This document shows, in pieces, positions 29,628 to 52,597 of a DNA stretch of 64,000 nt. The stretch's first letter is position 1. The number at the start of each line of letters is the position of its first letter. The notes under the pieces were generated by a model. It made no database searches, was not told the origin of the DNA, and saw only the letters and a list, made by a program, of their open reading frames with translations. Origin of the DNA: an uncultured Starkeya sp. (GTDB taxonomy: Bacteria; Pseudomonadota; Alphaproteobacteria; Rhizobiales; Xanthobacteraceae); the NCBI GenBank assembly GCA_964543245.1, contig CAZIXP010000001.1, positions 49,882 to 113,881 on the forward strand, written 5' to 3'. Made by a program: the position numbers and the translations under genes.

Positions 29628-29644
29628 CGGAAAGGATAGTTGCA

Positions 29645-35175: not shown

Positions 35176-36582
35176 CTACGAGCAGGTGATTGCTCTGTTC
35201 TCGGCGCGATCGGGATCGGCGCGGGGCGCTCGCGACAGCATGGCTTTGCTGAATTGCAGCTCCGCGCGAAGACCGCCCTCGGAACGGTTCCCGAGACTGA
35301 CATTCCCGCCGAGGCGCTTTGCCGCCAGCTCGGCAATCGCGAGCCCGAGACCGCTTCCCATCGCTGTCTTGTTGCGGCCGCGGTAGAACCTTTCGCAAAC
35401 CTTGGGCAACTCGTCTTCGGGGATTCCGGGGCCGTTGTCTTCAATGGTCACCGCGACGGCGTCGCCATCGATCCTCACTCCGCAACGGACGACGCCGTCG
35501 TTGCGGGAATGCAGCACGGCATTTTCCATGAGGTTGCGCACCGCCAGCATGAACAGCGACGCGTCGAGCTGAAGATAGATATCGTTCAGCTTGGCGTCGA
35601 TCTCGATCGGCACCGCGTCCGAGTAGTGTTGGCGGATGTCGTCGACGAGCTGGCCGACCAGCTTGCCCAGGTTGACGCGACGACCGTCGGCATCGGCTTC
35701 GCCCCGCTCGGCATTCGTCAGGTCGGTGAGCTGACGCATCAGCCGAGAGGTCCGGTCCACTCCGACCACAATCTGGCGCAGAGCGTTGCGCCGAATGTCG
35801 GGATCGTCGCTACCCAGCGCGACCTGCGCCTGGGTTTTGAGTCCCGCAACCGGCGTGCGCAGTTCATGCGCCGCGAAAGCCGTGAAGTCGCGCTCGCGCT
35901 CGCGGGCCGCATGGACGCGTCCGAACAGCCCGTTGAGCGAGCGGATGACGGGCTTGATCTCGGAGGGCGTGTCCACGTCCGGCAGCGCGCTCAGATCGGA
36001 CGCCGGACGTGTCTCCAACGCATGAGCCATCTTGTTGAGAGGCCCGAGGCCTTTCCTGACGCTCAGCCATATCAGCCCGGCCAGGATCGGCAGGATCAGC
36101 AGTGCCGGAAGGGCCAGGCCCCGGATGACATCGGCGACCAGCCGGTCGCGAACGCGCATATTGTCCCCGACGAGAACGCGCATGCCCAGATCGGCGTTGA
36201 CCACGGCATAGACGCGCCAGGTCTCTCCATCGATGAGCGTCTCCGAAAAGCCATCCTTGGCATCGGATAGGGGAGTCGCCGGCGCTGCGTCCGAACGGCC
36301 GACCAGGGTCCCGTCCAGCGCCCAGATCTGACACGAAAGCTGGCGATCGTAGGAGGCATGCATGGTTGGCTCGATGGCCGGAATCTGCGCTGCGCGCATC
36401 GGATCGATCTCCTGGCTGGTGATCAGCGAGCTCACCATGCGCGCCGCCTCGATCAGCCGGGCGTCGAGAACCCGCTCCACCTCAGCGCGGGTGCTGAGAT
36501 AGATCCAGGCGATCGCCGACATCCACACCACGCCGGTGGTGATCATCAGGATCAGGAAGAGCCGGCTCCGGATCGACGTCAC
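35176..36582 (-). CDS. Sensor histidine kinase (QseC/PmrB-like)
   Basis: Two TM segments, FAAHELRTP, NLMENA, DNGPGI and GSGLGL. Confidence 0.93.
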   Translation of the reverse strand: MTSIRSRLFLILMITTGVVWMSAIAWIYLSTRAEVERVLDARLIEAARMVSSLITSQEIDPMRAAQIPAIEPTMHASYDRQLSCQIWALDGTLVGRSDAAPATPLSDAKDGFSETLIDGETWRVYAVVNADLGMRVLVGDNMRVRDRLVADVIRGLALPALLILPILAGLIWLSVRKGLGPLNKMAHALETRPASDLSALPDVDTPSEIKPVIRSLNGLFGRVHAARERERDFTAFAAHELRTPVAGLKTQAQVALGSDDPDIRRNALRQIVVGVDRTSRLMRQLTDLTNAERGEADADGRRVNLGKLVGQLVDDIRQHYSDAVPIEIDAKLNDIYLQLDASLFMLAVRNLMENAVLHSRNDGVVRCGVRIDGDAVAVTIEDNGPGIPEDELPKVCERFYRGRNKTAMGSGLGLAIAELAAKRLGGNVSLGNRSEGGLRAELQFSKAMLSRAPRADPDRAENRAITCS

Positions 36583-37244
36583 GCGGTCGCCTCCGCCAGC
36601 TTGTAGCCGACGCCGCGCACCGTCTCGATGACGCTCGGGCCGAGCTTCTGCCTCAGATTGTGGATGTGCACTTCGATCGTGTTGCTTTCGATATCCTCTT
36701 GCCAGCCATAGAGCCGGTCCTCGAGCTGCGACTTCGACAGGATTTGGCCGGGCCGATCCATCAGCGCATGCAGGATGGAGAACTCGCGGCGCGAAAGACG
36801 AATCGCCTCACCGCTCTTTGTGACCGCCATCGTCGCGGGATCGAGGCGCAGATCGCGCCAGATGCGGCAGGCGGACGCGCCGCCGTTGCCGCGTCGCGTC
36901 AGCGCCCTCAGCCGGGCGGCTACCTCGTTCAGATCGAAGGGCTTCCCCAGATAGTCGTCCGCGCCGGCGTCGAGGCCGGCGATCCGGTCGGGCACGCTGT
37001 CCCGCGCCGTCAGAAGAAGGACCGGCGTTCCAACCTGCCGCCCTCGCAATTCGTCCAGTACGCCGAGCCCCGAGCCGTCAGGGAGCATCAGGTCGAGGAC
37101 GACCGCGTCAAAGGCCGAGATTCTTAGTGCAGCCGAGGCATCGGCGCAGGTGGAGACTGCGTCAACCGTGAAACCGGCCAGGCCCAGCCCGACCTGCAGG
37201 CCGTTCAGCAGCACCGCGTCATCTTCGACGACCAAAACTCTCAT
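36579..37244 (-). CDS. OmpR-family response regulator (QseB/PmrA-like)
   Basis: VEDD, LDLMLPDGSG, LTARD, GADDYLGKPF, SNTIEVHIHNLRQKL. Confidence 0.95.
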   Translation of the reverse strand: MRVLVVEDDAVLLNGLQVGLGLAGFTVDAVSTCADASAALRISAFDAVVLDLMLPDGSGLGVLDELRGRQVGTPVLLLTARDSVPDRIAGLDAGADDYLGKPFDLNEVAARLRALTRRGNGGASACRIWRDLRLDPATMAVTKSGEAIRLSRREFSILHALMDRPGQILSKSQLEDRLYGWQEDIESNTIEVHIHNLRQKLGPSVIETVRGVGYKLAEATA

Positions 37245-37292
37245 GACAACTTTGCTCAGCTTCCGTCAGAACAGTCGCAATCGGGTGCCGAC

Positions 37293-37309
37293 CTTAAGCC
37301 AGCCTTAAG
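37293..37309. promoter_or_regulatory. CTTAAG-N5-CTTAAG direct-repeat box (response regulator/dsbA divergent promoter)
   Basis: cttaag-ccagc-cttaag; PmrA/QseB-type box. Confidence 0.75.
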
Positions 37310-37379
37310 GTGGCAGGCGTGGATCCCGGCTCCAGGCGGTATGCCGCCTGTCCCTCTCACGATCGAAAGGAGATTCCGT

Positions 37380-38018
37380 ATGCCAGCTCTCACGCGTCGC
37401 GGCGCCATGGTCACCATGGGAGGCGCGGCTCTCGCGGTGCCTCTCATGCAACGCTCCGCCCTCGCGCAACACGCCGACGTTTCGAAGGAAATGATTCTCA
37501 ATGACCCCTCGGCCCCGGTTTCCGGAGACCCCCGCGGCGACCTGACGATCGTGGCCTTCCTCGACTACAACTGCCCCTACTGCAAGAAGTCCGCGCCCGA
37601 CCTTGCTCGCGTCGTGAAGGAAGACGGCAAGATCCGCCTCGTCTACAAGGATTGGCCGGTGATCCGGCCGACCTCGATCGATGGTGCCACCATGGCGCTC
37701 GCCGCCAAATATCAGGGCAAATACGAGGTTGCGCACCACGCCCTGATGGGCATTCCCGGGGTCGGCGTCCCAAGGGAGAAAATGCGCGAAGGTCTGGAGG
37801 CCGCGGGCATCGACATGCGCCGCCTCGACGCTGACATGACAGCCAAGGCAGCTGAAATCGACGCCATCATCAAGCGCAACATGGCGCAGGCCGATGCCAT
37901 CGGTTTCTCGGGCACGCCAGCCTACCTCATTGGGCCCTTCCAGACTTCGACCCTGGACTATCAAGGCTTCAAACTGGCTGTGGCGGACGCGCGCAAGCGG
38001 CAGGCAGAGGGACAGTGA
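37380..38018 (+). CDS. DsbA family thiol:disulfide oxidoreductase, Tat-like signal
   Basis: LTRR signal, FLDYNCPYCK, KDWPV and GTPA. Confidence 0.88.
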   Translation: MPALTRRGAMVTMGGAALAVPLMQRSALAQHADVSKEMILNDPSAPVSGDPRGDLTIVAFLDYNCPYCKKSAPDLARVVKEDGKIRLVYKDWPVIRPTSIDGATMALAAKYQGKYEVAHHALMGIPGVGVPREKMREGLEAAGIDMRRLDADMTAKAAEIDAIIKRNMAQADAIGFSGTPAYLIGPFQTSTLDYQGFKLAVADARKRQAEGQ

Positions 38019-38031
38019 GACGAACACGTGC

Positions 38032-38409
38032 TCACCACCCCCGCTCGCGATGTTTGCTGTCGATCGTGCTGCCTTTGATCTTGCCGATCGCGACGGTCAG
38101 CGGGCACGAGCCATAGCCGTCACAGGCCTTCGGAAACGACTTGCCATCGCAGGCGGACAGGAGGTTGGCCACCACGGAAGACTGAGGCCGCACGGCTGCA
38201 GCCGTCTGGGCATTTGCCGTCGAGACCGCATCCCTGCCCGGCTGGTACGAATGCGTCTCCGAGGGCTCCGCGACGGCGATGTCGAGATCACGCCTCGGTC
38301 GCTTGAACTCTGCCGCAACGGCTATACCGGCGGCTCCTCCACCGACGATGATGATGTGGTGCTTGAGCTGCAGCGCCTTCGGCTCCTGCGGATGCACGGC
38401 AGCTTCCAT
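38032..38409 (-). pseudogene. sqr: Internally deleted type II sqr remnant
   Basis: IIIVGGGAAGIAVAA...HSYQPG joined near 38235 directly to DAVSTANAQTAAAVR...DGYGSCPLTV; the central part, including KCAGAP, is missing. Confidence 0.8.
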
Positions 38410-38446
38410 TGAATTTTCCCATTTTCAGATCGTTACTTCTGATTTT

Positions 38447-38461
38447 GTGTAATTGTGTAAT
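38447..38461. promoter_or_regulatory. GTGTAA(T/C)TGTGTAAT motif shared with 55991-56005
   Basis: 14 of 15 identical to the reverse complement of 55991-56005; 30 bp upstream of the blh-like start. Confidence 0.55.
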
Positions 38462-38491
38462 CCATGTCGACAATAGTCAAGCAGGCATCCC

Positions 38492-39150
38492 ATGGAGCTC
38501 ATTCCGGTCACAGAGAAGTTTTCCGTCGCGGGGCAACTTCAGCCCGAAGATTTCGCTAAGTTGCGTCGCCTCGGTTTCAGGAGCGTCATCAACAATCGTC
38601 CCGACGGCGAGGACCCGTCACAGCCGGGGACCAAGGCGGAAGAAGCGGCGGCCAGGGCGGCCGGTCTCGACTACGTGTTCATCCCCGTCACCAGCACCTC
38701 GATGACGGCGGACGATGCTCGCCGTTTCGCCGAAGCCATCGTCGCGTCGGACGGCCCCGTCCTGGCGCATTGCCATTCCGGCGCGCGTTCCTTCTACATG
38801 TGGGTGCTGGCCGGCGACGCGGACGTTCCGGGATTAAAGAATGACAAGTTCGTCGCCACGGCGAGCGGGACCGCACCGGACCACGCCCAGTTCCGGATCG
38901 CTGTGAGTCGAGGTCCAGCCAAACCAACGATGTAGGGTTTTTTCGATCCTCGCACTTGAGGCCGTCCGGCGCGTCGCCGGCGATCCGGCGATCAAATCAT
39001 GCGCCATCATCGATCCAGTCCTCGCCTGCGCCGAGAAGCCCGGAGCTGCCAGGACCGAACACGCCGACGGGATCCTCGCCAATTCGTCGAGCAGGTCCTG
39101 ATGGTCGAATGTATTTTCGACACCCAACCCCGCACGGCGTCCACCTGCGG
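38492..39150 (+). pseudogene. blh: Degraded Blh-like DUF442-PDO fusion gene
   Basis: Intact DUF442 domain (NNRPDGED, AHCHSGARS), then KPTM*GFFDPRT*, frameshifted SCAIIDPV and ECIFDTQP traces of the PDO N-terminus, then truncation. Confidence 0.75.
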
Positions 39151-39164
39151 AGGCCGCCGTCTCT

Positions 39165-39181
39165 CTTAATGCTGTCTTAAG
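39165..39181. promoter_or_regulatory. CTTAA(T/G)-N5-CTTAAG box upstream of dsbG
   Basis: cttaat-gctgt-cttaag. Confidence 0.7.
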
Positions 39182-39237
39182 CTGGCAGGGAGAGGACGCC
39201 AATGTTCTGAGTTTTGCACGCGACGGTCTCAATGGGC

Positions 39238-40029
39238 ATGATCGAATTGAAGAAGCTTCTGCTCTCTGCCGCTTTCGCAGCGAGCCTCGCAGGCTGCAAT
39301 GACGACAGCGGCACGGCCTCGGCAGATGCTGGCCGTGAGGGGGAGGCGGTCTTGCAGGCTCTCGAGGAACGGGGCCTGACCGTCCACGGTCCTCTCGATG
39401 TCCCGGGAGGATTGAGCGCATTCGCCGCGAGCTCGGGCACGCAGCCGGTGGCCATCTATGTCATGCCGGATTCCAACTACGCGCTGATCGGAACGCTGAT
39501 CGATGCGCACGGCAACTCCGTCGCCGACGCCGAGTTAAATCGGGTGGCGAGCGAACCAATCGAGCGCGAAGCCTGGGCAGCGCTCGAGGCCGCGGCCTGG
39601 GTTCAGGACGGAAACCCCAATGCGGAGCGCATCGTCTATGTATTCACCGATGCGAACTGCCCGTACTGTAACCAGCTATGGCGCTCGGCGCGTCCATGGG
39701 TGGAGGCCGGCAAGATCCAGCTACGTCATATCATGGTCGGCGTGATCCGCGCCGATTCTGCCGGGAAGGCGGCCGCGATTCTGGAAGCATCCGATCAGCA
39801 GGCCGCGCTCACTCAGAATGAACTGAACCATGCCAGCGGCGGCATCGCCCCTCTTGCGACCATATCCGCCGACACCAACGCCAAACTCAACAGCAATGTC
39901 GAGTTGATGAGGCGGCTGGGCTTCAGCGGCACGCCGGGGCTCGTTTCCAGAGGCAGCGACGGTTCCCTCAACGTGCAGGCCGGCGCCCCCCGGGGAGCCG
40001 CCCTCGAGATCGTGTTCGGGCCGCTTTAG
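39238..40029 (+). CDS. dsbG: Thiol:disulfide interchange protein DsbG (lipoprotein signal)
   Basis: LAGC lipobox, VYVFTDANCPYC, PWVEAGKIQLRHIMVGVI, GTP; start uncertain. Confidence 0.9.
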   Translation: MIELKKLLLSAAFAASLAGCNDDSGTASADAGREGEAVLQALEERGLTVHGPLDVPGGLSAFAASSGTQPVAIYVMPDSNYALIGTLIDAHGNSVADAELNRVASEPIEREAWAALEAAAWVQDGNPNAERIVYVFTDANCPYCNQLWRSARPWVEAGKIQLRHIMVGVIRADSAGKAAAILEASDQQAALTQNELNHASGGIAPLATISADTNAKLNSNVELMRRLGFSGTPGLVSRGSDGSLNVQAGAPRGAALEIVFGPL

Positions 40030-40074
40030 GCCGTCTCGGTCGCGGGCGTGCGGCGTCAGCAGAGCCGCGCACCT

Positions 40075-40091
40075 CTTAAGCCTGCCTTAAG
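40075..40091. promoter_or_regulatory. CTTAAG-N5-CTTAAG box upstream of dsbD
   Basis: cttaag-cctgc-cttaag. Confidence 0.75.
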
Positions 40092-40135
40092 CTGCCGATC
40101 AGACCTCTCCCGCCCGTGTCACATGAAGCGGGAGC

Positions 40136-41995
40136 ATGCCGTTGCCTTCGAGAACTATCTCGTCCGTCCTTGTCGCGGTGCTGATGATCGCGATTGCCGC
40201 GATATCCACGCCGGCATCTGCGCAGGTGACGTCCACGGGAGGGATGCCGCTCCCCGTCGATCAGGCGTTCCAGCTCTCTGCGACGCGCGAAGGCGACGAG
40301 GGCGTCCGGCTGCAATGGACGATCGCGTCAGGCTACTATCTCTATCACGATAAATTCGGCGTCACGCAGGGCGCGTCCGACCTCGCGATGCCCGAACTCC
40401 AGGGCAACGGTCAAAGCAAAGACGATCCGACATTCGGCCCATCCACCGTCTTCCTTGACCACGTCGCCGCCGTGGTTCCTCTCGAAGCCTCGGCATCCGG
40501 CCCGCTCGAAGTCCACTATCAGGGATGTCAGGACAACGGCATCTGCTACCCGCCGATCATCCGGCATGTCGATGTCACGACACTCGCCGTGACCGATCCG
40601 CAGCAACGCGCACCGGCAACGCAGGCTCATGAATGGACAGCTCCCATTTCGGGGGCGCCGGCGCTGGCGAGCGGCGTCACCATCGCGGCGGATAATGGCG
40701 GCTTGATCGGCTCGCTGCTCAAAGACGGCGGCGTCGCGATGGTGCTGGCAAGCTTCCTGATGTTCGGCGTGCTGCTCGCCTTCACCCCTTGCGTGTTCCC
40801 GATGTACCCGATCCTCGCCGGAGCGATCGCGCGTCAGGGCGAGTCGGTCACAGCGGCCAGGGGTTTCAACCTGTCGCTCGCCTATGTCTTGGCCATGGCG
40901 ACCGCCTTCGGGCTCCTCGGCGTGGTCGCCGCCTGGTCGGGCCAGAATCTGCAGATGGCGCTTCAGTCTCCGCTCGCCATCGGCGCCGTCTCGATCCTGT
41001 TCGTCATCCTCGCCCTGTCCATGTTTGGCCTGTTCGAATTGCAGCTGCCATCGGCCTGGGTGAACGCCATCGGCCGTATCGGCCAGGGTGATCGCGGGTC
41101 GCTGGCCTCGGCCGCACTGCTTGGCTTCACCTCCGCGCTGATCGTCGGACCGTGCGTCACCGCACCGCTCGCTGGTGCGCTGATCTATATCGCGCAGACC
41201 GGCGACGTGGCGCTTGGCGCCGCATCGCTCTTCGCGCTCGGCCTCGGCAAGGGCATTCCGCTGATTGCCTTCGGCACGCTCGGTCCGAAAGCCTTGCCCA
41301 AGGCCGGGGCGTGGATGACCTCGGTGCGCCAGGCGTTCGGCTTCGTGTTCGTGGCCACCGCGATCTGGATGGTCTCGCGCCTCATCCCCGCCGAGGCCGG
41401 CCTTGCGCTCTGGGCCCTCTTTGCCATTGGTCTCGCGGTGTGGCTCGGAGCCTTCGATTCGCTCGGGCCCGACGCACCAGGGCGACGCCGGACCGCCAAG
41501 GCCGCCGGCATCGCCGCAGCCCTCTACGGCATCGTGCTCGCGGTCGGCGCCGCCAGCGGGGCCAATGACCCTTTCCGTCCCCTGAGCAACCTCGCCGCGT
41601 ACACGCGGGGCAGCGCCGGTTCTGCGCAAGCGCTGGCTTTCCGAAACGCGGCGACCCCGGCCGAGCTGCGAACCGGGCTTGCCGCAGGCAACGGCAAGCC
41701 AAGCCTCCTCTATGTCACGGCCGACTGGTGCATCACCTGCGCGGTCATCGATCGCAGCGTTCTTTCCGACCCCGCCGTCCAGTCCACGCTCGCCCGCTTC
41801 AATCTCATCAAGCTCGACGTCAGCGCCAACACGCCCGACCAGAGCCAGATCATGCAGAGCCTTCAGGTCGTCGGCCCACCGACAATGATCTTCGTCGGTC
41901 CTGAGGGACAGGAGACGACGGGAACCCGCCTCGTCGGCGACGTGACCAAGGCGACCTTGCGGGCCTCGGTCGAGCGTATGGGCCTGGTCCAATGA
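40136..41995 (+). CDS. dsbD: Protein-disulfide reductase DsbD
   Basis: alpha domain QGCQDNGICYPP, TM domain FTPCVFPM and GPCVTAPL, thioredoxin domain ADWCITC. Confidence 0.95.
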   Translation: MPLPSRTISSVLVAVLMIAIAAISTPASAQVTSTGGMPLPVDQAFQLSATREGDEGVRLQWTIASGYYLYHDKFGVTQGASDLAMPELQGNGQSKDDPTFGPSTVFLDHVAAVVPLEASASGPLEVHYQGCQDNGICYPPIIRHVDVTTLAVTDPQQRAPATQAHEWTAPISGAPALASGVTIAADNGGLIGSLLKDGGVAMVLASFLMFGVLLAFTPCVFPMYPILAGAIARQGESVTAARGFNLSLAYVLAMATAFGLLGVVAAWSGQNLQMALQSPLAIGAVSILFVILALSMFGLFELQLPSAWVNAIGRIGQGDRGSLASAALLGFTSALIVGPCVTAPLAGALIYIAQTGDVALGAASLFALGLGKGIPLIAFGTLGPKALPKAGAWMTSVRQAFGFVFVATAIWMVSRLIPAEAGLALWALFAIGLAVWLGAFDSLGPDAPGRRRTAKAAGIAAALYGIVLAVGAASGANDPFRPLSNLAAYTRGSAGSAQALAFRNAATPAELRTGLAAGNGKPSLLYVTADWCITCAVIDRSVLSDPAVQSTLARFNLIKLDVSANTPDQSQIMQSLQVVGPPTMIFVGPEGQETTGTRLVGDVTKATLRASVERMGLVQ

Positions 41996-42795
41996 ACGCC
42001 ATCAGCATCGGCCCGTTCGTCTTCGCCGCGGCGCAGTTCGCGGCCATTCTCGGCATCTTCGCCTTCACGATCGCAACATCGATCCTGGCACGCCGCTTCG
42101 ACCCGCTGATCGGTCGCTGGTCGACATGGGCGCTGATCGGCGGCCTGATCGCGGCTCGGCTCGGGCATGTCGGCCTGCATTGGCAAAGCTTCATCGCAGA
42201 ACCGTGGCGAGTGATCGCATTCTGGCAAGGCGGCTTCGAGCCGATCGCCGGTCTGATCGGCGTCGCCATCATCAGCGCCTTCTTCATTCGTTCCCTCAAG
42301 ACCGGTGCGGCAGCCGCAGGCGCGCTTGGCCTCAGCCTTGTCGTCTGGATCGGCGTCACGCAGCTCACCCAGGCGACTCTCGGCCAGCCTGCGCCGACCG
42401 TCGCCCTGCAACAGATCGACGGCCCGCCGCTTGCCGTTAGCGACGTCGCCGGCAAGCCGGCCGTTATCAATCTCTGGGCGAGCTGGTGCCCGCCCTGCCG
42501 CAGGGAAATGCCGTTGCTTGCCGAGATCGCCGCAAGCAGGGACGACGTCGCCTTCCTCTTCGTCAATCAGGGCGAAGGATCGGACACGATCCGCTCCTAT
42601 CTTGCATCCGCGAATCTCAAGCTCGATCGCGTGCTGCTCGATCAGGCGATGCAGATCCCAAGGCACTACGGGACGATGGGGCTTCCCATCACCCTTTTCC
42701 TCAGAGCCGACGGAACCCTCGCGTCCATGCATATGGGCGAAATCTCCCGGGAAGCCCTCAACGCCAATATCGAGAAAATAACGGGTCCGACATGA
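41992..42795 (+). CDS. Membrane-anchored TlpA-like thioredoxin with N-terminal TM domain
   Basis: LIAARLGHV TM region; NLWASWCPPCRREMP; FVNQGE; GLPIT. Confidence 0.88.
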   Translation: MNAISIGPFVFAAAQFAAILGIFAFTIATSILARRFDPLIGRWSTWALIGGLIAARLGHVGLHWQSFIAEPWRVIAFWQGGFEPIAGLIGVAIISAFFIRSLKTGAAAAGALGLSLVVWIGVTQLTQATLGQPAPTVALQQIDGPPLAVSDVAGKPAVINLWASWCPPCRREMPLLAEIAASRDDVAFLFVNQGEGSDTIRSYLASANLKLDRVLLDQAMQIPRHYGTMGLPITLFLRADGTLASMHMGEISREALNANIEKITGPT

Positions 42796-42902
42796 CGCCG
42801 GTGGTTCCGATGCAAATCGCGGCCGGCCCGCTGCCCTTCACCCCCAAAGTTGAACCATCCGCCTTCCTCGATTCGGGCGCGGCCAACGATGCGTAACGAC
42901 CA

Positions 42903-43514
42903 ATGATTTCGTCTAGGAAAAGCGGAGCGTTCTTCACCCTGCTGGTCAGCCTCGTTGTGGCCGGTTGCACCACGACGACAACCACATCTATCACACAGGC
43001 GCGCGATCGCTCACAACCCGCCGCTGGGATCGAGGCTTCCAGGGTCGATCCGAAGAACCGGCGACAACAGGTGGACTATCGCACGCCGCATGCCCCGGGA
43101 ACGATCATCGTCGATACGACAAATCGCTTCATCTATCTGGTGCAGGAAAACGGAAAGGCGATGCGTTACGGGGTCGGCGTCGGTCGCGAAGGGCTCGCGT
43201 TCACAGGCACGGCCAATATTGGCCTCAAGCGCGAATGGCCGCGCTGGACGCCGACACCCAACATGATCGCTCGCGAGCCCGAACGATATGCGCGCTGGGC
43301 CGCCGGGATGGAGGGCGGACCGAACAATCCTCTCGGCGCGCGGGCGCTCTACCTTTACAAGGACGGTAAGGACACGCTGTTCCGCATCCACGGCACCAAT
43401 GAACCGCACACCATCGGCCATGCCGTCTCGTCCGGCTGCATCCGCATGTTGAATCAGGACGTCATCGACCTCTATCGTCGCGTCCCGGCAGGATCGAAAG
43501 TCGTTGTGCTGTAG
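42903..43514 (+). CDS. L,D-transpeptidase (YkuD/ErfK) lipoprotein
   Basis: VAGC lipobox, RYGVGVGREG, NPLGARALYL, RIHGT...SSGCIRM. Confidence 0.93.
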   Translation: MISSRKSGAFFTLLVSLVVAGCTTTTTTSITQARDRSQPAAGIEASRVDPKNRRQQVDYRTPHAPGTIIVDTTNRFIYLVQENGKAMRYGVGVGREGLAFTGTANIGLKREWPRWTPTPNMIAREPERYARWAAGMEGGPNNPLGARALYLYKDGKDTLFRIHGTNEPHTIGHAVSSGCIRMLNQDVIDLYRRVPAGSKVVVL

Positions 43515-43583
43515 CCGCGTTGGCATAGTCAATCATTTGGAACGGACGCCTCCCATTACAACGATCCGGAGGCCTCCAAAGCA

Positions 43584-44240
43584 ATGGGGTTTCGTAACAT
43601 GGAGATCAATTGGGACAGCAGATTCGAACGTGAGGACTATCTCTTCGGGACCGAGCCAAACGCTTTTCTTGCCTCGCAGGCCTTCCGGCTGCAACCTGGA
43701 ATGAAGGCGCTTGCGGTCGCCGACGGAGAGGGGCGCAACGGCGTCTGGCTCGCCGAGCGTGGGCTCGACGTCGTTTCGTTCGATGCCTCAACGGTCGCGC
43801 TTGCAAAGGCGCGGGACCTCGCCCGCCGACGCGACGTGACCTTGCAGACCGTGCATTCCGATCTTGCCGAGTGGGAGTGGGAACCCGAAACCTACGACGT
43901 CGTCGCCGCGATCTTTGTGCAGTTCGCACCGCCCGATTTGCGCAAGACGATGTTCGAAGGCTTCCACACATGCCTGAAGCCTGGCGGAATTCTGATCATG
44001 CGGGGATATCGCGTCGAACAGCTTCGCTACGGCACCGGTGGCCCGCCGCACGCCGATCATCTCTACACGAAGGATATGCTGATCCGGTCATTCGGGCATT
44101 GGGAAATCCGATACCTTCAGGAGCATGACAGCGTGATCGAGGAAGGAGCCGGGCATTCCGGCATATCGGCCCTGATCGATCTCGTTGCCGAAAAGGCAAG
44201 ACATGATGTCCTGCCGCTCCCCTCATTGAAGGCCGCGTAG
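43584..44240 (+). CDS. Class I SAM-dependent methyltransferase
   Basis: WDSRF..EDYLFGTEPNAFL, VADGEGRNGVWLA and LKPGG. Confidence 0.88.
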   Translation: MGFRNMEINWDSRFEREDYLFGTEPNAFLASQAFRLQPGMKALAVADGEGRNGVWLAERGLDVVSFDASTVALAKARDLARRRDVTLQTVHSDLAEWEWEPETYDVVAAIFVQFAPPDLRKTMFEGFHTCLKPGGILIMRGYRVEQLRYGTGGPPHADHLYTKDMLIRSFGHWEIRYLQEHDSVIEEGAGHSGISALIDLVAEKARHDVLPLPSLKAA

Positions 44241-44294
44241 ACGGATTGCATAGCGATGTCGTAGCTCGTGACGTCATCGCGCATCGGGCGCCAC

Positions 44295-45038
44295 CTAGCC
44301 AACCGCCAGATACGACATCATTGGGTCGGGGATGACGACGATCGGGCTGCCATCGCGAACCTCGTCATGGAGATGGATGACATCCTGATTGAGCAGCCGG
44401 ATGCAGCCGGACGAGACGGCATGACCGATCGAAAAGGCCTCGGGCGTGCCGTGCAGCCGATAGAGCGTGTCGCGCCCGCCTTCATGAATGTAAAGCGCGC
44501 GCGAGCCAAGCGGGTTGTTGAGTCCGGGGTCCATTCCGCCATTTGCGATGCTGTACGGCTCCAGCTCGGGCTGGCGGGCGACCATGCTGTCGGGCGGCGT
44601 CCAACGCGGCCATTTGCGCTTGTAGGCGACGATCGCGCGCCCCGACCATGCAAAGCCTTCGCGGCCGACGCCGATGCCATAACGCGTCGCGCGGCCCTCC
44701 GGCTTCACATGGTAGAGGTACTTGCCAGGCGTATCGACGATCAGCGTTCCTGGCCGCTCCTCTGTCGGATAGTCGACCTCCGTCCGCCAGAAGCGGCGAT
44801 CGACCTGGGAGACGTCGACCTCGGGAATGGGGAACGGCTCGTTCGGCATCGCCGTATACATCAGCGGAACCACGGGTTCCGGCTCGACCTTGACAACTGG
44901 CGCCATCATCGGGACCGGCTGGCGTGTCGATACGCAGCCCGCCAGTGTAAAGGCGCTGGCGCCGACCAGAAATGCGCGCCGTGCCAGCGGCCTGGAAAGT
45001 GTCGTTTTACTCAATTGTCTCTCAGCCTTCCGAATCAT
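44295..45038 (-). CDS. L,D-transpeptidase, Tat/lipoprotein signal
   Basis: ARRAFL..LAGC, RYGIGVGREG, NPLGSRALY, RLHGT...SSGCIRL. Confidence 0.93.
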   Translation of the reverse strand: MIRKAERQLSKTTLSRPLARRAFLVGASAFTLAGCVSTRQPVPMMAPVVKVEPEPVVPLMYTAMPNEPFPIPEVDVSQVDRRFWRTEVDYPTEERPGTLIVDTPGKYLYHVKPEGRATRYGIGVGREGFAWSGRAIVAYKRKWPRWTPPDSMVARQPELEPYSIANGGMDPGLNNPLGSRALYIHEGGRDTLYRLHGTPEAFSIGHAVSSGCIRLLNQDVIHLHDEVRDGSPIVVIPDPMMSYLAVG

Positions 45039-45070
45039 TCCGGTTCAGAACGCTCAAACGTCAGGGCCAC

Positions 45071-45087
45071 CTTAAGCCTGCCTTAAG
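45071..45087. promoter_or_regulatory. CTTAAG-N5-CTTAAG box between the L,D-transpeptidase and thioredoxin genes
   Basis: cttaag-cctgc-cttaag. Confidence 0.75.
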
Positions 45088-45127
45088 ACGGGAACTCACC
45101 GTTGCCTCGAACAACGGAGAGCCACAA

Positions 45128-45655
45128 ATGCTGATTTCGACCTGGAAGCTGGCAGACATTCACCGGAACGATCAGGGCGCGGGTGCCTGCGGTCATCGTC
45201 CGTCCCGGTCCGCGATCGTCGCAACGCGGCGTCAACTCCTGATCGGAGCTCTCAGCGTCGCGGCCGCTACCAGCCTTGCCGTTCCTGCCGGGGCCGCGGT
45301 CCTGACCGTCACCAACCTCGACCAATACCGAGGCGGTCTTGCACGCCTCGCTCCGCGCTACCGGACCGCGCTCGTCGACATTGGCGCGGAATGGTGCGCC
45401 TTCTGCAAGACCATTGATCAGAAGATCCTCCCGGACCCCGGCGTCCGGCGAGCCATGGAGCGAATTGCGCTGATCAAGGTCGACGTGACCAGAATGGGCC
45501 AGTCCAGCCGCGAGCTCCTTCGATACCTGCGCGCCGACGGGCCCCCAACGCTCTTCGTCGTGCAGACTGCGAGCGGACATGAATTCTCAGGCACGCGATC
45601 CGTCGGAGCCTTTCGAGCGAGTGACCTCGTCCGGCGCCTGCGCCCGTTCGCCTGA
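45128..45655 (+). CDS. Exported thioredoxin-family protein (DsbD gamma-like)
   Basis: TRRQLL signal, GAEWCAFCK, IKVDVT and GPPT; start uncertain. Confidence 0.8.
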   Translation: MLISTWKLADIHRNDQGAGACGHRPSRSAIVATRRQLLIGALSVAAATSLAVPAGAAVLTVTNLDQYRGGLARLAPRYRTALVDIGAEWCAFCKTIDQKILPDPGVRRAMERIALIKVDVTRMGQSSRELLRYLRADGPPTLFVVQTASGHEFSGTRSVGAFRASDLVRRLRPFA

Positions 45656-45686
45656 CATCGATACCGGTTTCAAGACATGCGGGAGC

Positions 45687-45700
45687 TTGATTGAGATCAA
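45687..45700. promoter_or_regulatory. Perfect FNR/FixK consensus box upstream of the triheme cytochrome-tsdA operon
   Basis: TTGAT-TGAG-ATCAA, 47 bp before the ATG. Confidence 0.75.
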
Positions 45701-45746
45701 CGCGTGCGTTGGGCCGCTCATGATACTTACATAATTACTGAAAGTA

Positions 45747-47099
45747 ATGGGGCGGATCGTGAAACTGTTCATCAAGCTAGCGCTATTCGCGATCTGCGGA
45801 CTTGGAATCTCCTATGCCTTCGCGATTTCCACCCCCTATTGGTTCAAGCCGAAGGCCGAGGCGCATGTCGACGTCACCGATGCCGCCCTGATCCGCCAGG
45901 GCGCGTATCTCGCGCGCGCAGGCGACTGCATCGCTTGCCACACCGCCCCTGGCGGCAAACCCTTCGCCGGCGGCCTCGGCATGCAGACGCCGATGGGCAC
46001 GATCTATTCGACCAACATCACGCCCGATGCTCAAACGGGTATCGGCGGCTACAGCTACGGCGACTTCGAGCGGGCCGTACGAAAAGGCATCCGGCCCGAC
46101 GGCACGCACCTCTACCCCGCCATGCCCTACGTCTCCTATGCTGTCGTCAAGGACGAGGACATCAAGGCGCTCTACGCCTACTTCATGTCGAGCGTCGAAG
46201 GGGTCCGGCAGGACAACCAGCCGACCACCATGCCTTGGCCGCTCAGCATGCGCTGGCCGCTTGCCTGGTGGCAGCTCATGTTCGCCCAGCCCCGCGACTT
46301 TGCCGCGACGACCACCGATCCGCAGCTCGTGCGCGGCGCCTATCTTGTCGAGGGCCTCGCCCATTGCGGCGCCTGCCATACGCCACGCGGCATCGCGTTT
46401 CAGGAAACGGCCCTCGCCGATGGCCCGAACAGCCGATTTCTGTCGGGCTCCGTCCTGGAGGGCTGGTACGCCAAAAACCTTCGCGATGAAGACACTGGCC
46501 TGTCGACCTGGACGGTCGATGAGATCGTCGATTTCCTGAAGACTGGCCGCAATGCCAAGACGGCGGCCTTCGGCTCGATGTCCGATGTCGTTGAGCATTC
46601 CACCCAGTATCTTGCGGCCGACGACCTGACGACGATCGCCACCTACCTCAAATCGCTGAACGCCCGCGACGGACGCAGCCCGACATGGCAGCCGAAGGAG
46701 GATCTCACCACCGCGGCCCTCAAGGCCGGCGATTTCAGCGCCCCCGGCGCCATGTCCTACGTCGAGCACTGCGCGACCTGCCACCGGATGGACGGCAAGG
46801 GCGCGCCGCGCATCTATCCGGCGCTCGCCGGAAACTCGATGGTCTTTGCCGATGATCCAAGCTCCCTCATCCAGGTGACGCTTGCCGGCGGGCGCATGCC
46901 CCGCACCCCGCATGACACCATGGCCTTCACCATGCCCGGCTTCGCTCACCTGACGAACCGCGAGGTCGCGGCGATGCTGAACTTCATCCGCAATGGCTGG
47001 GGCAATCACGGCAGCGAGATCACCGAGGCCGACATCTCGCGCATGCGTCATGAGATCGCGCGCAAGCCGAAGCACTACGTACCGGGAGAACAAGAATGA
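45747..47099 (+). CDS. Triheme cytochrome c, AdhB / gluconate dehydrogenase cytochrome-subunit family
   Basis: GAYLARAGDCIACH, STNITPD, GAYLVEGLAHCGACHTPR, CATCH; N-terminal membrane anchor. Confidence 0.9.
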   Translation: MGRIVKLFIKLALFAICGLGISYAFAISTPYWFKPKAEAHVDVTDAALIRQGAYLARAGDCIACHTAPGGKPFAGGLGMQTPMGTIYSTNITPDAQTGIGGYSYGDFERAVRKGIRPDGTHLYPAMPYVSYAVVKDEDIKALYAYFMSSVEGVRQDNQPTTMPWPLSMRWPLAWWQLMFAQPRDFAATTTDPQLVRGAYLVEGLAHCGACHTPRGIAFQETALADGPNSRFLSGSVLEGWYAKNLRDEDTGLSTWTVDEIVDFLKTGRNAKTAAFGSMSDVVEHSTQYLAADDLTTIATYLKSLNARDGRSPTWQPKEDLTTAALKAGDFSAPGAMSYVEHCATCHRMDGKGAPRIYPALAGNSMVFADDPSSLIQVTLAGGRMPRTPHDTMAFTMPGFAHLTNREVAAMLNFIRNGWGNHGSEITEADISRMRHEIARKPKHYVPGEQE

Positions 47100-48007
47100 C
47101 CAACCGCTCCCTCATCTTGACCGGGATCGCGATCGTGGCGATCACCGCAGCGGCCGGCATATTTGCGCTAACGCACCAGCGCACGCTGGATGCCCCGGTT
47201 AACGACGCAATCGCGATCCTGGACGCTACCGGCGCCCGCATCGGCGACTATCGCATTCCGCCGGACAGTTCGATCGCGCAAGAGCCCAATGCGGTTGCCA
47301 TCATGCTTGGCAAGCGGCTGCTGAACGAAACCGCGCGCCTGCTTCCCACCAATGTCGGCAACGGGCTCAACTGCAACTCCTGCCACATGGCTCAAGGCAA
47401 GCTCTCCGACGCCAACACCTACATCAATACAAGCAATTTCTATCCCGCCGTCATGCCCCGCGCCGGGCGCGTGGTCGATCTCGTCACGCGCATCAACGGC
47501 TGCTTCCAGCGATCGATGAACGGCAAGCCTCTCGCAGAGGACAGCTCCGAAATGCAGGCAATGGTCGCCTATATGGACTGGTTGCGGCAGGACGTGGCCA
47601 AAGGCGCCAGGGTTGCGGTCCGCAACGCCGGGCCGATCGACGACACTCTGATACCGGATCCCGAGAGAGGCCAGGCGATCTACGCCGCCCAGTGCGCCTC
47701 ATGCCATGGCGCCAATGGGCAGGGCATGAAAGACCAGTCCGGCGACTATATCTTCCCGCCGCTCTGGGGTGACGAATCGTTCAATATCGGCGCCGGCATG
47801 GCGAGAACTTACAAGGCGGCGCAGTTCGTCAAATATGCGATGCCGCCGGCCATGAACCTGATACCTCCGCTCGGAACGGGCGGCGTCCTCTCCGATCAGG
47901 ATGCCGTCGATGTTTCGGAATACTTCACCCACATGCCCCGTCCCGATTTCGCCGGAAAAGTGCACGACTGGCCCACAGGCAACAAGCCGGAGGACGCGCG
48001 TTATTAG
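47096..48007 (+). CDS. tsdA: Diheme thiosulfate dehydrogenase / tetrathionate reductase TsdA (copy 1)
   Basis: CNSCH, catalytic Cys in RINGCFQRSMNG, CASCH, PPLWGDESFNIGAGM, KYAMPP. Confidence 0.85.
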   Translation: MTNRSLILTGIAIVAITAAAGIFALTHQRTLDAPVNDAIAILDATGARIGDYRIPPDSSIAQEPNAVAIMLGKRLLNETARLLPTNVGNGLNCNSCHMAQGKLSDANTYINTSNFYPAVMPRAGRVVDLVTRINGCFQRSMNGKPLAEDSSEMQAMVAYMDWLRQDVAKGARVAVRNAGPIDDTLIPDPERGQAIYAAQCASCHGANGQGMKDQSGDYIFPPLWGDESFNIGAGMARTYKAAQFVKYAMPPAMNLIPPLGTGGVLSDQDAVDVSEYFTHMPRPDFAGKVHDWPTGNKPEDARY

Positions 48008-48038
48008 AACATGTCTTTTTCAAGGCTGAACCTGGTTT

Positions 48039-48055
48039 CTTAAGGTTGCCTTAAG
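48039..48055. promoter_or_regulatory. CTTAAG-N5-CTTAAG box upstream of the ccoN-like operon
   Basis: cttaag-gttgc-cttaag. Confidence 0.75.
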
Positions 48056-48125
48056 CTTGGTTTCCGAGCGCTGACCCCATGCGCCTGCCGCAAGAGCCAG
48101 GCCGCAAAGGGGGAGGGGTTAGCGC

Positions 48126-49700
48126 ATGGTGACGATGGGACTGTTGTTGGCGTTGAGCTTCGCCGTGTCGCTGCTCGCGCTCGCGTTCCTGATCTGGGCG
48201 ATCAGCAACAAGCAGATCAAGCTCGACCAGCAAGACGCCAAGGTGATCTTCGCCGCGGGCGACGAGAACCACCTTGACAGCCCCGACGCCGAGCAATCGC
48301 CCGCCAGGCGACATTACTTCGACACCGTCACCACCGGCATCGACCACATATCCATGAGGCCGGCGGCCGTCCTTCTCGTCGCGGCCACCCTATGGCTGCT
48401 CGTCGGTTCGGCCTTCGGCCTCATCGCCTCGCTGAAGCTGCATTGGCCGGACTGGCTTTCCGCCTACGCACCGCTCACCTTCGGCCGCGTCCGCACGCTA
48501 CACCTCAACCTTGTCATCTACGGGTGGCTGTCGCAGGCCGGCATCGCCGCGATGATCTGGGTTTTGCCGCGCATCTTCCACACGCCGCTGCGCGCGCCCC
48601 GGATGCCGATCATCGGAGCGGTCCTCTGGAACATCGCCGTGGCGCTGGGAGCCGTCGCGATCGCCAACGGCTGGACGGATGGCGAGGAGTGGCTGGAAAT
48701 TCCCTGGCAGCTCGACATGCTGTTGGCGCTGGCCGGCGTCTTCTTCGTCATCCCGCTGGTGAAGACGACGCTCGCTCGGGAGGTCCACCACATCTATGTG
48801 AGCGGCTGGTACTTCCTCGCGGGAATCCTCTGGTTCCCCTGTCTCTTCGTCATTGCAAATCTGCCCTACATCCATTCGGGCGTCGAAGAGGCCACGGTGA
48901 ACTGGTGGTTCGCGCACAATGTGCTGGGCCTCTGGCTGACGCCGCTCGGCGTGGGAACGGCCTACTACTTCATTCCGAAAATCATCGGCAAACCGATCTA
49001 TTCCTATTCCGTCTCACTGCTTGGATTCTGGGGCCTCGCACTCTTCTACAGCCAGGTGGGCATCCATCATCTGATCGGCGGACCGGTGCCGACCTGGGTC
49101 GTGACGCTCTCCATCGTTCATTCGGTGATGATGTTCATCCCGGTGATCGCGGTGGCCATCAACCAGCATGTCACGGTCGCCCGCAATCTCTGGGCCCTGA
49201 AAGAATCGCTGCCGTTGCGCTTCATATCCTTCGGCGCCGTCATGTATACGCTGGCGTCGTTCCAGGGTTCGATCGAGGCGCTGCGCTCGGTCAACACGGT
49301 CACGCATTTCACGCACTACACGGTCGGGCACGCCCATCTCGGCGCCTACGCCTTCGTGACGATCGTCATGTTCGGCGCTGCCTATCACATGCTGCCGCGC
49401 ATGACCGGCCGGGCCTTCCAGTGGCCGGCTCTGATCAACGCTCACTTCTGGCTGATCGTCGTCGGCTTCGCGATCTACTTTTTCGGGCTTTCGATCGGTG
49501 GCGTGCTGCAGGGCCTCGCCATGCTCGATGCGACACGTCCGTTCTCTGACAGCGTCATCCTCACGATCCCTTACCTCGAGGCGCGCAGTCTCGGCGGCAG
49601 CCTTATGACGCTTGGCCACATCCTCTTCGCCGTCAATGTCGCCGCCATCCTCATTCCGCGCCGGGCATCGGCGGCCGCACGCGTGGTGCCCGCCGAATGA
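48126..49700 (+). CDS. ccoN: Divergent cbb3-type (C-family) oxidase subunit I with a CcoS-like N-terminal extension
   Basis: RTLHLN, WWFAHN, FYSQVGIHH and GHAHLG give all six His ligands and the helix VII Tyr. Confidence 0.85.
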   Translation: MVTMGLLLALSFAVSLLALAFLIWAISNKQIKLDQQDAKVIFAAGDENHLDSPDAEQSPARRHYFDTVTTGIDHISMRPAAVLLVAATLWLLVGSAFGLIASLKLHWPDWLSAYAPLTFGRVRTLHLNLVIYGWLSQAGIAAMIWVLPRIFHTPLRAPRMPIIGAVLWNIAVALGAVAIANGWTDGEEWLEIPWQLDMLLALAGVFFVIPLVKTTLAREVHHIYVSGWYFLAGILWFPCLFVIANLPYIHSGVEEATVNWWFAHNVLGLWLTPLGVGTAYYFIPKIIGKPIYSYSVSLLGFWGLALFYSQVGIHHLIGGPVPTWVVTLSIVHSVMMFIPVIAVAINQHVTVARNLWALKESLPLRFISFGAVMYTLASFQGSIEALRSVNTVTHFTHYTVGHAHLGAYAFVTIVMFGAAYHMLPRMTGRAFQWPALINAHFWLIVVGFAIYFFGLSIGGVLQGLAMLDATRPFSDSVILTIPYLEARSLGGSLMTLGHILFAVNVAAILIPRRASAAARVVPAE

Positions 49701-50317
49701 ACCGCTATCTTCCCCTTTCGATCATCGCGCTCGGCATCCTGGCTTTCGCAACCTTGCTGCTTGTCATCGCGCCGGGCATCCAGATCGGCCGTCACGACGC
49801 TCCGCCTGGTCTGGAGCCCTATACCGAGCAGCAATTGCGCGGCCGCCAGGTCTACGTGTCGCTCGGCTGCGTCTACTGTCACAGCCAGCAACCGCGATCG
49901 CCCGACCAGGCGCCCGACGGCGCACGGGGCTGGGGACGTCCGGCCATTGCCGCGGATTACACCTACGATGCGCCCCATCAGCTTGGGACAATGCGCACCG
50001 GACCCGATCTCCTGAACGTCGGCGCAAGACTGCCGTCACGGGACTGGCACCTGGCCCATCTCTATCAGCCGCGCGCCATCTTCGACTGGAGCATCATGCC
50101 GGCCTATCCTTTCCTCTTCGAGGTCAAGGGTGCCCCCGGTCCCGGCGACGTTGTCGTCTCCATGCCTTCCGGCTTTGGGCCCGAAGCAGGCGTTATCGTC
50201 GCCAAGCAGGACGCGCTTGATCTCACCGCCTATCTGCTGTCCCTCGACCGTACATATCCGGCGCCCGCCGACGCCATTCGCGACGATGGCTACCGCCGTC
50301 CGGAGGGCACGCCATGA
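49697..50317 (+). CDS. ccoO: cbb3-type oxidase subunit II-like monoheme cytochrome
   Basis: GRQVYVSLGCVYCHSQQPR, RTGPDL and SIMPAY. Confidence 0.88.
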   Translation: MNRYLPLSIIALGILAFATLLLVIAPGIQIGRHDAPPGLEPYTEQQLRGRQVYVSLGCVYCHSQQPRSPDQAPDGARGWGRPAIAADYTYDAPHQLGTMRTGPDLLNVGARLPSRDWHLAHLYQPRAIFDWSIMPAYPFLFEVKGAPGPGDVVVSMPSGFGPEAGVIVAKQDALDLTAYLLSLDRTYPAPADAIRDDGYRRPEGTP

Positions 50318-52592: not shown

Positions 52593-52597
52593 CCGCC

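Follow-up and report, generated by a model that had tools for sequence, protein, structure and literature searches.

A DsbRS-type two-component system and candidate CTTAAG-N5-CTTAAG regulator boxes upstream of thiol-redox, thiosulfate dehydrogenase and cbb3-type oxidase genes on an island of an uncultured Starkeya sp.

A 64,000-nucleotide stretch of DNA from an uncultured Starkeya sp. (assembly GCA_964543245.1, contig CAZIXP010000001.1, positions 49,882 to 113,881), referred to here as the window, carries five boxes of the form CTTAAG-N5-CTTAAG, with identical spacing of the half-sites, near genes for a response regulator and its sensor histidine kinase. The boxes precede genes for periplasmic thiol-redox proteins (Dsb), for TsdA-type thiosulfate dehydrogenases and for an unusual cbb3-type oxidase. 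The explanation that we favor, and that we hold to be likely, is that the boxes are the sites of an island-encoded DsbRS-type regulator, which would switch on the Dsb, TsdA and cbb3-type genes. The evidence came from the statistics of the boxes, their conservation in relatives, the family relationship of the two proteins and the residues expected to contact DNA.

Five CTTAAG boxes in the window

A pattern scan of the 64-kb window found the exact sequence CTTAAG-N5-CTTAAG four times (boxes 1, 3, 4 and 5; Table 1). The expectation for an exact box in shuffled sequence was 0.00; none of 100 dinucleotide-preserving shuffles reached four matches, and no match was observed in any of them. When up to two mismatches were permitted, six matches were obtained against 0.19 expected. 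Box 2 reads CTTAAT-N5-CTTAAG, with its one mismatch in the first half, and the preliminary description of five identical boxes thus holds for the four exact copies and not for this one. The hexamer CTTAAG occurs ten times in the 64 kb, and nine of the ten copies lie inside boxes. All five boxes share an 11-bp register and one orientation, all are intergenic, and all satisfy the pattern TTAA-N7-TTAA; their spacers, from box 1 to box 5, read CCAGC, GCTGT, CCTGC, CCTGC and GTTGC. As had been proposed, they stand just upstream of dsbA and the divergent regulator gene, dsbG, dsbD, the thioredoxin-like gene (trx) and the divergent L,D-transpeptidase gene, and ccoN, with gaps of 32–70 nt to the start codons. 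A weight matrix built from 95 distinct sites of relatives recovered, above a threshold of 12 bits, the five boxes alone in the window and no site in coding sequence.

Conservation of the boxes in related loci

Two sets of loci were compared. Among 80 loci fetched with the regulator, 14 were orthologous (42–91% identical) and 66 held more distant OmpR-family regulators. The exact box was present just upstream of the regulator gene in all 14 orthologous loci and in none of the 66 more distant ones. Among the 14, additional boxes stand ahead of dsbD, dsbA and L,D-transpeptidase genes. The second, independent set comprised 80 loci fetched with CcoN, 46 of them with a CcoN at least 70% identical to that of the window. 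Of these 46, 29 had a box no more than 300 bp upstream of ccoN and 12 more had one 1.4–3 kb upstream, and the sequence flanking the boxes was often unalignable while the box itself persisted. The counterpart of box 4 upstream of trx is kept in loci L091-L105, and the CTTAAT variant seen in box 2 also stands upstream of dsbG in L092, L094, L095 and L097. About 60 beta- and gammaproteobacterial loci show the order dsbG-dsbE-dsbD, box, regulator, kinase, with half-sites of the form RTTAAS/NTTAAV, as in Pseudomonas. A sixth box with two mismatches was also found in the window (Table 1); at the same place, relatives L092-L100 carry a perfect box before a SoxB-like gene (about 500 aa; metallophosphatase and 5'-nucleotidase C domains; e.g., L092 16632-18157), which is absent from the window, where the box has decayed. 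The box set consists of real, strongly conserved cis-elements.

Four low-GC uncultured Alphaproteobacteria (L010, L012, L014 and L015) have a regulator 42–46% identical to that of the window and a CTTAAG-N5-CTTAAG sequence about 450 bp upstream. Their kinases are without the sensor cysteine, no dsb or cco genes were found close by, and these loci may represent a different use of the box.

CTTAAG is its own reverse complement, and therefore a box can also be read as a hairpin or an inverted repeat. On such a reading the boxes would be structural elements, either hairpin terminators or attenuators or a dispersed repeat, and not protein sites. The terminator scan reported box 5 as a stem-loop of seven pairs, and boxes 3 and 5 stand 46 and 31 nt past the stop codons of dsbG and tsdA, respectively. 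Boxes 1 and 4, in contrast, lie between divergent starts, where there is nothing to terminate, and the stem, a 6-mer rich in A/T, is weak and has no proper T-tract. The pairing is broken without compensation in box 2 and in many relatives, and the flanks are unconserved, unlike those of a mobile repeat. In a symmetry count of 80 non-CTTAAG variants, the outer positions agreed as a direct repeat in 44 and 30 of the 80 sites and as an inverted repeat in 12 and 18, the inverted agreement being near chance. The hairpin or terminator reading was rejected on these counts, and we regard a structural role of any kind as highly improbable.

Relationship of the regulator and kinase to DsbRS

The preliminary description had called the adjacent pair QseBC-like. 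It is indeed an OmpR-type pair, and the best NCBIfam model for the kinase is QseC, which matches over the full length. The scores, nevertheless, lie under the NCBIfam equivalog cut-offs for both proteins (209 bits against 345 for QseB and 265 against 475 for QseC), and the same was observed with the models for PmrA (229 against 330) and PmrB (135 against 314), although PmrA/BasR is the closest relative of the regulator among solved structures (E 4e-51). Membership in QseBC or PmrAB proper was therefore rejected, and the pair was compared with DsbRS.

DsbRS (PA2479/PA2480) of P. aeruginosa is a copper-sensing pair encoded divergently from dsbDEG, which it activates (bioRxiv 10.1101/2020.08.17.255257). 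The function of DsbS requires Cys82, His235 and Ser239, the position of Ser239 being described as less conserved, and the list of DsbRS cognates given by Yu et al. includes Rhizobium sp. 60-20, where the pair adjoins a dsbA (bioRxiv 10.1101/2020.08.17.255257). As the DsbR/DsbS reference, in place of the PAO1 proteins, we used the core locus of P. paraeruginosa, a sister species, located by a degenerate DNA pattern for RLA[AM]SARMV. The kinase of this locus (440 aa) has exactly Cys82, His235 and Ser239, as in the published DsbS, and dsbD-dsbE-dsbG lie divergent from the regulator gene; the spacer between them contains TAA-N7-TTAAT twice.

The window regulator is 49.8% identical to P. paraeruginosa DsbR over 219 aa, as compared with 44.7% to K. 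pneumoniae PmrA. The kinase is 31% identical to DsbS over 442 aa (E 2e-43) and 30.6% in the sensor domain (E 2e-17). Its residues Cys84, His239 and Thr243 align with Cys82, His235 and Ser239 of DsbS, the residue at H+4 being Thr and not Ser. Cys84 is the single cysteine of the periplasmic sensor and is kept in alpha-, beta- and gammaproteobacterial relatives. With the kinase of Rhizobium sp. 60-20, the window kinase shares 74% identity as well as Cys84 and His239. The linkage of regulator, kinase and dsbD/dsbE/dsbG was found in the window, in 14 alphaproteobacterial loci and in about 60 beta- and gammaproteobacterial loci. From the identities to DsbR and DsbS, the aligned Cys and His residues and the closeness of the Rhizobium sp. 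60-20 kinase, we assign the pair to the DsbRS family, of which it is probably a distant, alphaproteobacterial and island-borne branch; the orthology rests on synteny, key residues, the motif and moderate identity.

Probable assignment of the boxes to the response regulator

The pmra-box has the form XTTAAY-N5-XTTAAY and overlaps the -35 element, and residues T187, N188, V192 and H195 of PmrA contact its TAA bases (PMC10570014). DsbR-protected sites have the consensus TAA-N7-TTAAT, and chromatin immunoprecipitation sequencing gave the motif TTAA-N7-TTAA (bioRxiv 10.1101/2020.08.17.255257). The DsbR sites of P. paraeruginosa have the same 6-5-6 layout as the window boxes. In the recognition helix of the window regulator, the four contact positions are S187, N188, V192 and H195, the sole change being T to S. 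Because of these PmrA-like contact residues, the co-occurrence of the box with the regulator clade and the conservation of the box upstream of ccoN and the dsb genes, the boxes are very probably the binding sites of the neighboring response regulator. Conservation, contact residues and DsbR-site architecture thus argue for the earlier proposal, in which control of the thiol-redox and cbb3-TsdA genes is exerted by the adjacent OmpR-family pair through the boxes. The distances of 40–70 nt from box to start codon would be compatible with an overlap with the -35 element.

A different protein would bind the boxes if they were recognized by the LysR-type regulator encoded at 34051-35031, through an inverted repeat, or by a chromosomal PmrA/QseB-like regulator of the host. 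The palindromic CTTAAG makes the alphaproteobacterial 17-mer formally also an inverted repeat, the LysR gene follows the kinase gene in both the window and the Rhizobium sp. 60-20-type island, and the recognition helix of the window regulator is nearly identical to that of PmrA. The LysR gene, on the other hand, was not detected beside the regulator in L001-L017, all of which keep the box; the beta- and gammaproteobacterial half-sites are non-palindromic, with the direct-repeat agreement at their outer positions given above; and the box co-occurs with the DsbR-like regulator clade across classes. The LysR neighbor was rejected as the box binder, as it does not co-occur with the box in the orthologous loci, and we consider recognition by any protein other than the DsbR-like regulator to be quite unlikely.

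Genes downstream of the boxes

Gene naming by Pfam, NCBIfam and solved-structure searches bore out the gene names given earlier; the features are listed in Table 1.

Table 1. Boxes, genes and island landmarks in the 64-kb window.
Feature	Coordinates	Strand	Remarks
trbI	149-1348		Left edge of the window
Sensor histidine kinase, DsbS-like	35176-36582	-	468 aa; Pfam: 2CSK_N periplasmic sensor, HAMP, HisKA (His239), HATPase
OmpR/PhoB-family response regulator, DsbR-like	36579-37244	-	221 aa; Asp51; Pfam
Box 1	37293-37309	+	CTTAAGCCAGCCTTAAG; in the divergent regulator/dsbA spacer; 70 nt from its end to dsbA, 48 nt to the divergent regulator start (37244)
dsbA	37380-38018	+	212 aa; CPYC; ATG at 37380
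Box 2	39165-39181	+	CTTAATGCTGTCTTAAG; one mismatch; upstream of dsbG, 50 nt from its end to the start
dsbG	39232-40029	+	265 aa; CPYC; start at 39232; NCBIfam DsbG 289 bits against a cut-off of 124
Box 3	40075-40091	+	CTTAAGCCTGCCTTAAG; upstream of dsbD, 44 nt from its end to the start
dsbD	40136-41995	+	Start at 40136; first gene of probable operon 40136-44240
tlpA/dsbE-like redoxin gene	41992-42795	+	CPPC; N-terminal membrane domain; operon 40136-44240
L,D-transpeptidase gene	42903-43514	+	Operon 40136-44240
S-adenosylmethionine (SAM) methyltransferase gene	43584-44240	+	Operon 40136-44240
Second L,D-transpeptidase (YkuD) gene	44295-45038	-	Divergent from trx
Box 4	45071-45087	+	CTTAAGCCTGCCTTAAG; upstream of trx, 40 nt from its end to the start; 32 nt to the divergent L,D-transpeptidase start (45038)
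trx, thioredoxin-like, resembling the DsbD C-terminal domain	45128-45655	+	CAFC; start at 45128; probable operon 45128-48007
Triheme cytochrome c gene, quinone-reducing dehydrogenase subunit family	45747-47099	+	E 4e-118
tsdA no. 1, TsdA-type diheme thiosulfate dehydrogenase	47096-48007	+	
Box 5	48039-48055	+	CTTAAGGTTGCCTTAAG; upstream of ccoN, 70 nt from its end to the start
ccoN	48126-49700	+	Start at 48126; probable operon 48126-54748
ccoO	49697-50317	+	FixO domain
Triheme cytochrome gene	50314-51561	+	Monoheme domain and TsdB/c4-like diheme domain
tsdA no. 2	51558-52592	+	
P1B heavy-metal ATPase gene	52598-54748	+	GMxCxxC domain
Decayed sixth box	54882-54898		CTTAAGAGCCGGTCAAG; two mismatches; between convergent ATPase and BigR-like genes
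tRNA-Gly(GCC)	56238-56312	-	Likely island boundary

From the overlaps or short gaps between them, the dsbD, tlpA, L,D-transpeptidase and methyltransferase genes probably form one operon. A second probable operon comprises trx, the triheme cytochrome gene and tsdA no. 1. The genes from ccoN to the P1B ATPase gene, which overlap or lie 5 nt apart, also probably form a single operon. A Blh-type sulfur-transferase domain is encoded between dsbA and dsbG on the plus strand. In the same interval, a 125-aa open reading frame on the minus strand (38032-38409, start MEAAVHPQEPKALQLKHHIIIVGGGAAGIAVA) corresponds to the N-terminus, which binds flavin adenine dinucleotide, of a pyridine-nucleotide-disulfide oxidoreductase. 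The Rhizobium sp. 60-20-type island has a complete 421-aa SQR-like gene at the equivalent place (L250 7224-8489), and the open reading frame therefore looks like a deletion remnant of SQR. In the TlpA-like redoxin, about 100 N-terminal residues form a membrane domain that weakly resembles the start of Lgt (prolipoprotein diacylglyceryl transferase), and the redoxin gene is followed by a 34-codon open reading frame that was called in relatives too.

Each TsdA has two CxxCH motifs, and the GCF motif with the heme-1 Cys ligand aligns to 4WQ7 and 5LO9 in both copies (E 1e-47 to 3e-84). CcoN keeps the equivalents of H60, H207, Y251, H257, H258, H345 and H347 of 3MK7 chain A, so that no heme or CuB histidine of the P. 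stutzeri enzyme is missing and its cross-link tyrosine is present as well. It has an N-terminal extension of about 80 residues and scores 275 on TIGR00780, below the equivalog cut-off of 583. No ccoP or ccoQ was found in the ccoN operon; the triheme cytochrome encoded after ccoO may take the place of CcoP. In total, the proteins of the operons preceded by boxes contain eleven heme c sites (CxxCH).

TsdA genes accompany DsbRS-type systems elsewhere as well. The orthologue of the downstream TsdA in Paracoccus thiocyanatus is that strain's only thiosulfate-to-tetrathionate enzyme, and experiments showed that tetrathionate formation requires it; it is preceded by a tsdB-like gene, and a box stands upstream of ccoN in this locus (L108). 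In the Rhizobium sp. 60-20-type island, a SoxB-like/TsdA-like/DsrE operon stands behind a box, with SQR, Blh, BigR-like, YeeE and TauE genes around it. In the core genome of P. paraeruginosa, genes for a diheme c4/TsdB-like and a TsdA-like protein adjoin dsbS (L279 705-2230), the latter protein being 54% identical to the window's TsdA no. 2. Since the P. thiocyanatus, 60-20-type and P. paraeruginosa loci all show the pairing, the association of DsbRS-type systems with TsdA is, on this comparison of loci, old and general. The DsbRS paper is silent on a TsdA link, the word 'cytochrome' occurring zero times in its text (bioRxiv 10.1101/2020.08.17.255257). The searched literature gave no link of the P. 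paraeruginosa-type tsdB/tsdA-like genes to DsbRS, and in the literature on PA2479, PA2481 and PA2482 no regulon data touching cytochromes were found.

Proposed mechanism and signal

In the mechanism that we propose, a periplasmic signal would be read by the sensor domain of the kinase through the conserved Cys84, and the kinase would then move from phosphatase to kinase activity. A dimer of the phosphorylated regulator would bind the tandem head-to-tail CTTAAG half-sites, 11 bp apart, at the -35 element or just upstream of it, and would activate five promoters. Promoter 1 would drive dsbA and probably also the divergent operon of the regulator and kinase themselves, promoter 2 dsbG, and promoter 3 the dsbD-tlpA-ldt-methyltransferase operon; promoter 4 would serve trx, the triheme cytochrome and tsdA, and possibly the divergent ldt, and promoter 5 ccoN, ccoO, the triheme cytochrome, tsdA and the P1B ATPase. 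Of the two TsdA modules, one would probably feed a dedicated cbb3-type oxidase and the other the quinone pool. The thiol-reducing and isomerizing machinery, together with the ATPase, would serve to mature and protect these periplasmic proteins, which depend on cysteine, heme c and copper. Regulator binding, activation (and not repression), the operon limits and the signal are what we infer here.

Three rationales, which are not mutually exclusive, fit this co-regulation. The Dsb/TlpA/Trx path and the ATPase could mature the eleven heme c sites and the CuB center; the regulon could repair thiols attacked by copper; or the thiols that it repairs could be those damaged by tetrathionate, which TsdA forms. 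Copper is known to poison the active-site cysteine of L,D-transpeptidases.

By homology with DsbRS, copper would be the single most likely signal, with a chance that we put slightly short of even. It is the sole signal tested for the family, its binding being dependent on Cys82 (bioRxiv 10.1101/2020.08.17.255257), and the ccoN operon ends with a P1B ATPase bearing a copper-type metal-binding domain. The main alternative, which we hold only tentatively, keeps the architecture described above and takes a thiol-reactive sulfur compound (tetrathionate, polysulfide/persulfide or thiosulfate), acting on Cys84, as the signal; on this view the regulon would amount to a module for thiosulfate oxidation that defends itself against the thiol-oxidizing product. 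Two TsdA genes stand under boxes, and the core dsbRS of P. paraeruginosa has tsdB/tsdA-like genes beside it. The window island encodes a Blh-type dioxygenase, the Blh sulfur-transferase domain, a BigR-like repressor and the SQR remnant. In the 60-20-type island, the box before the SoxB-like/TsdA-like/DsrE operon lies among genes for SQR, a Blh sulfur transferase/dioxygenase, BigR-like, YeeE-like and TauE proteins. The copper data cited above speak against this alternative, as does the ATPase, and a gene neighborhood is not evidence of the inducer.

A more speculative extension of the sulfur alternative is that DsbS-family kinases are general periplasmic sensors of thiol-attacking agents, that the inducer of the island branch is reactive sulfur, and that its regulon is a self-contained mobile respiratory package; we consider this possible but rather doubtful. 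If it were true, thiosulfate would be oxidized by TsdA to a private cbb3-type oxidase and the quinone pool, and DsbD, TlpA, DsbG, DsbA and the spare L,D-transpeptidases would guard against the regulon's own thiol-oxidizing product. The same logic would apply to the P. aeruginosa group, where conserved tsdBA genes adjoin dsbRS.

Several points weigh against the explanation by a DsbRS-type regulator acting at the boxes. The kinase is only 31% identical to the characterized type of DsbS, with Thr in place of Ser at H+4. The recognition helix of the regulator resembles PmrA's more than DsbR's, and cross-regulation by another PmrA-like regulator of the host is therefore possible. The promoter scan found no recognizable sigma-70 -10 element downstream of any box, so that a class II promoter geometry is assumed, and the 40–50 nt between box and start codon would leave very short leaders. 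Metatranscriptome and metagenome contigs over 35000-54900 show flat depth and no transcript ends, and are uninformative on start sites. Copper as the signal is taken over from work on a single species; the surrounding genes, in the window or in relatives, are mostly those of sulfur metabolism (two TsdA, Blh, BigR-like, the SQR remnant and SoxB-like); and classic copper-resistance genes are absent around the system.

The mobile island

The cluster had been described as island-encoded, and our data agree with this. The window begins in a Trb-type transfer region (trbI) and holds a tRNA-Gly gene as the likely island boundary; a metagenome contig of 100% identity breaks at 56271, within the tRNA gene, and beyond it the GC content rises from about 0.63 to 0.68–0.73 and housekeeping-type genes follow. 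The cluster DNA is 98.4–98.6% identical in Chelatococcus caeni, Halodurantibacterium flavum and a third genome, from different alphaproteobacterial orders; the cultured carriers of these near-identical copies are C. caeni DSM 103737 and H. flavum CGMCC 1.12756, and in C. caeni the flanks past the LysR gene differ from those of the window. The kinase is 100% identical in several Alphaproteobacteria. The exact sequence is present in wastewater and sludge metagenomes. In the plasmid collection, only partial and distant matches were found, the best being ccoN-ccoO of Paracoccus replicons (79%). No integrase gene lies beside the tRNA-Gly gene within the window, and the integration module is therefore outside the window or lost. 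These results supported the view that the cluster sits on a Trb-type conjugative island ending at tRNA-Gly.

The island carries further cargo. Sulfur-stress genes at 4958-5839, 7002-8816 and 54912-55924 include those for a SulP/STAS permease, for a BigR-like repressor of the ArsR family accompanied by a peroxiredoxin, and for a Blh-type persulfide dioxygenase domain, which scores 588 bits, just below its cut-off of 625. An IS110-family transposase, two P-type ATPases and a complete cydDC-cydAB-cydX set are encoded at 9553-10716 (minus strand), 12978-18330 (minus strand) and 22959-29804; the two ATPases are a type II enzyme of 950 aa and a protein of 604 aa without a metal-binding domain. Further redox cargo comprises peroxiredoxins and OsmC.

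An identical ccoN-ccoO-tsdA-ATPase cluster with a DsbRS-like pair was found in loci L161-L165 and L170-L173, whose hosts are P. paraeruginosa, Pigmentiphaga kullae, P. abietaniphila and Cupriavidus gilardii. All four share the sensor domain at 100% identity, which points to a single mobile element that spread recently and may be of the PAGI-2/CMGI-1 type. The hosts match the known host range of PAGI-2/CMGI-1, and membership in PAGI-2 is presumed from this match.

Comparison with known systems

To our knowledge, DsbRS has been characterized in one species so far, as a copper sensor for dsbDEG, and the control of TsdA is essentially unknown. The window locus and its approximately 150 relatives suggested that the DsbRS family is widespread on conjugative islands, that its binding site can be read straight from the sequence, and that TsdA-type thiosulfate dehydrogenases recur in its regulon, as does an unusual CcoP-less CcoNO oxidase. 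A regulator for TsdA is thereby predicted, together with a testable link between periplasmic disulfide homeostasis, copper and the respiration of sulfur compounds.

The island ends at tRNA-Gly, as PAGI-2/CMGI-1 does; it differs in its Trb-type transfer operon, and its proteins are only 31–65% identical to the PAGI-2-type copies. As in CcoNOQP of Pseudomonas stutzeri (3MK7), the CcoN ligands are kept and CcoO is present, whereas the window operon has a triheme cytochrome and TsdA instead of CcoP and CcoQ, and a CcoN extension of about 80 residues. The TsdA proteins resemble those of Allochromatium vinosum (4WQ7), Marichromatium purpuratum (TsdBA, 5LO9) and Paracoccus thiocyanatus in their two hemes and heme-1 Cys motif, and the downstream copy is preceded by a TsdB/c4-like domain. 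Unlike the known genes, those of the window stand under a DsbR-type box, and their operons also encode either a cbb3-type oxidase plus a metal ATPase or a triheme cytochrome linked to quinone.

Among regulatory systems, the likeness to QseBC lies in the label QseC that sources give to the kinase relatives, and the difference in the gene context. With PmrA/BasR (4S04/4S05, 8JO2; PMC10570014), the system shares an identical box architecture and the residues N188, V192 and H195, and by analogy a head-to-tail dimer replacing the -35 element would be expected; the window system is, in contrast, without lipid A modification targets, and its sensor is not PmrB-like. The closest likeness is to DsbRS. 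Both systems have a regulator-kinase operon beside dsbD, dsbE (tlpA) and dsbG; a QseC-like kinase with a single functional-type periplasmic Cys and an equivalent His (Cys84/His239 and Cys82/His235); TTAA cores 11 bp apart in the spacer between dsb and regulator genes; and adjacent tsdB/tsdA-like cytochrome genes. The half-site of the window is stricter (CTTAAG as opposed to RTTAAY), and five promoters, with dsbA and dsbG having boxes of their own, replace one divergent pair. The window regulon also adds two TsdA modules, the cbb3-type oxidase and the P1B ATPase, and it sits on a conjugative island. The system is thus of an already known kind, a DsbRS core with PmrA-type boxes, whereas the regulon content (two TsdA, CcoNO without CcoP and the P1B ATPase) and the mobile context appear to be new.

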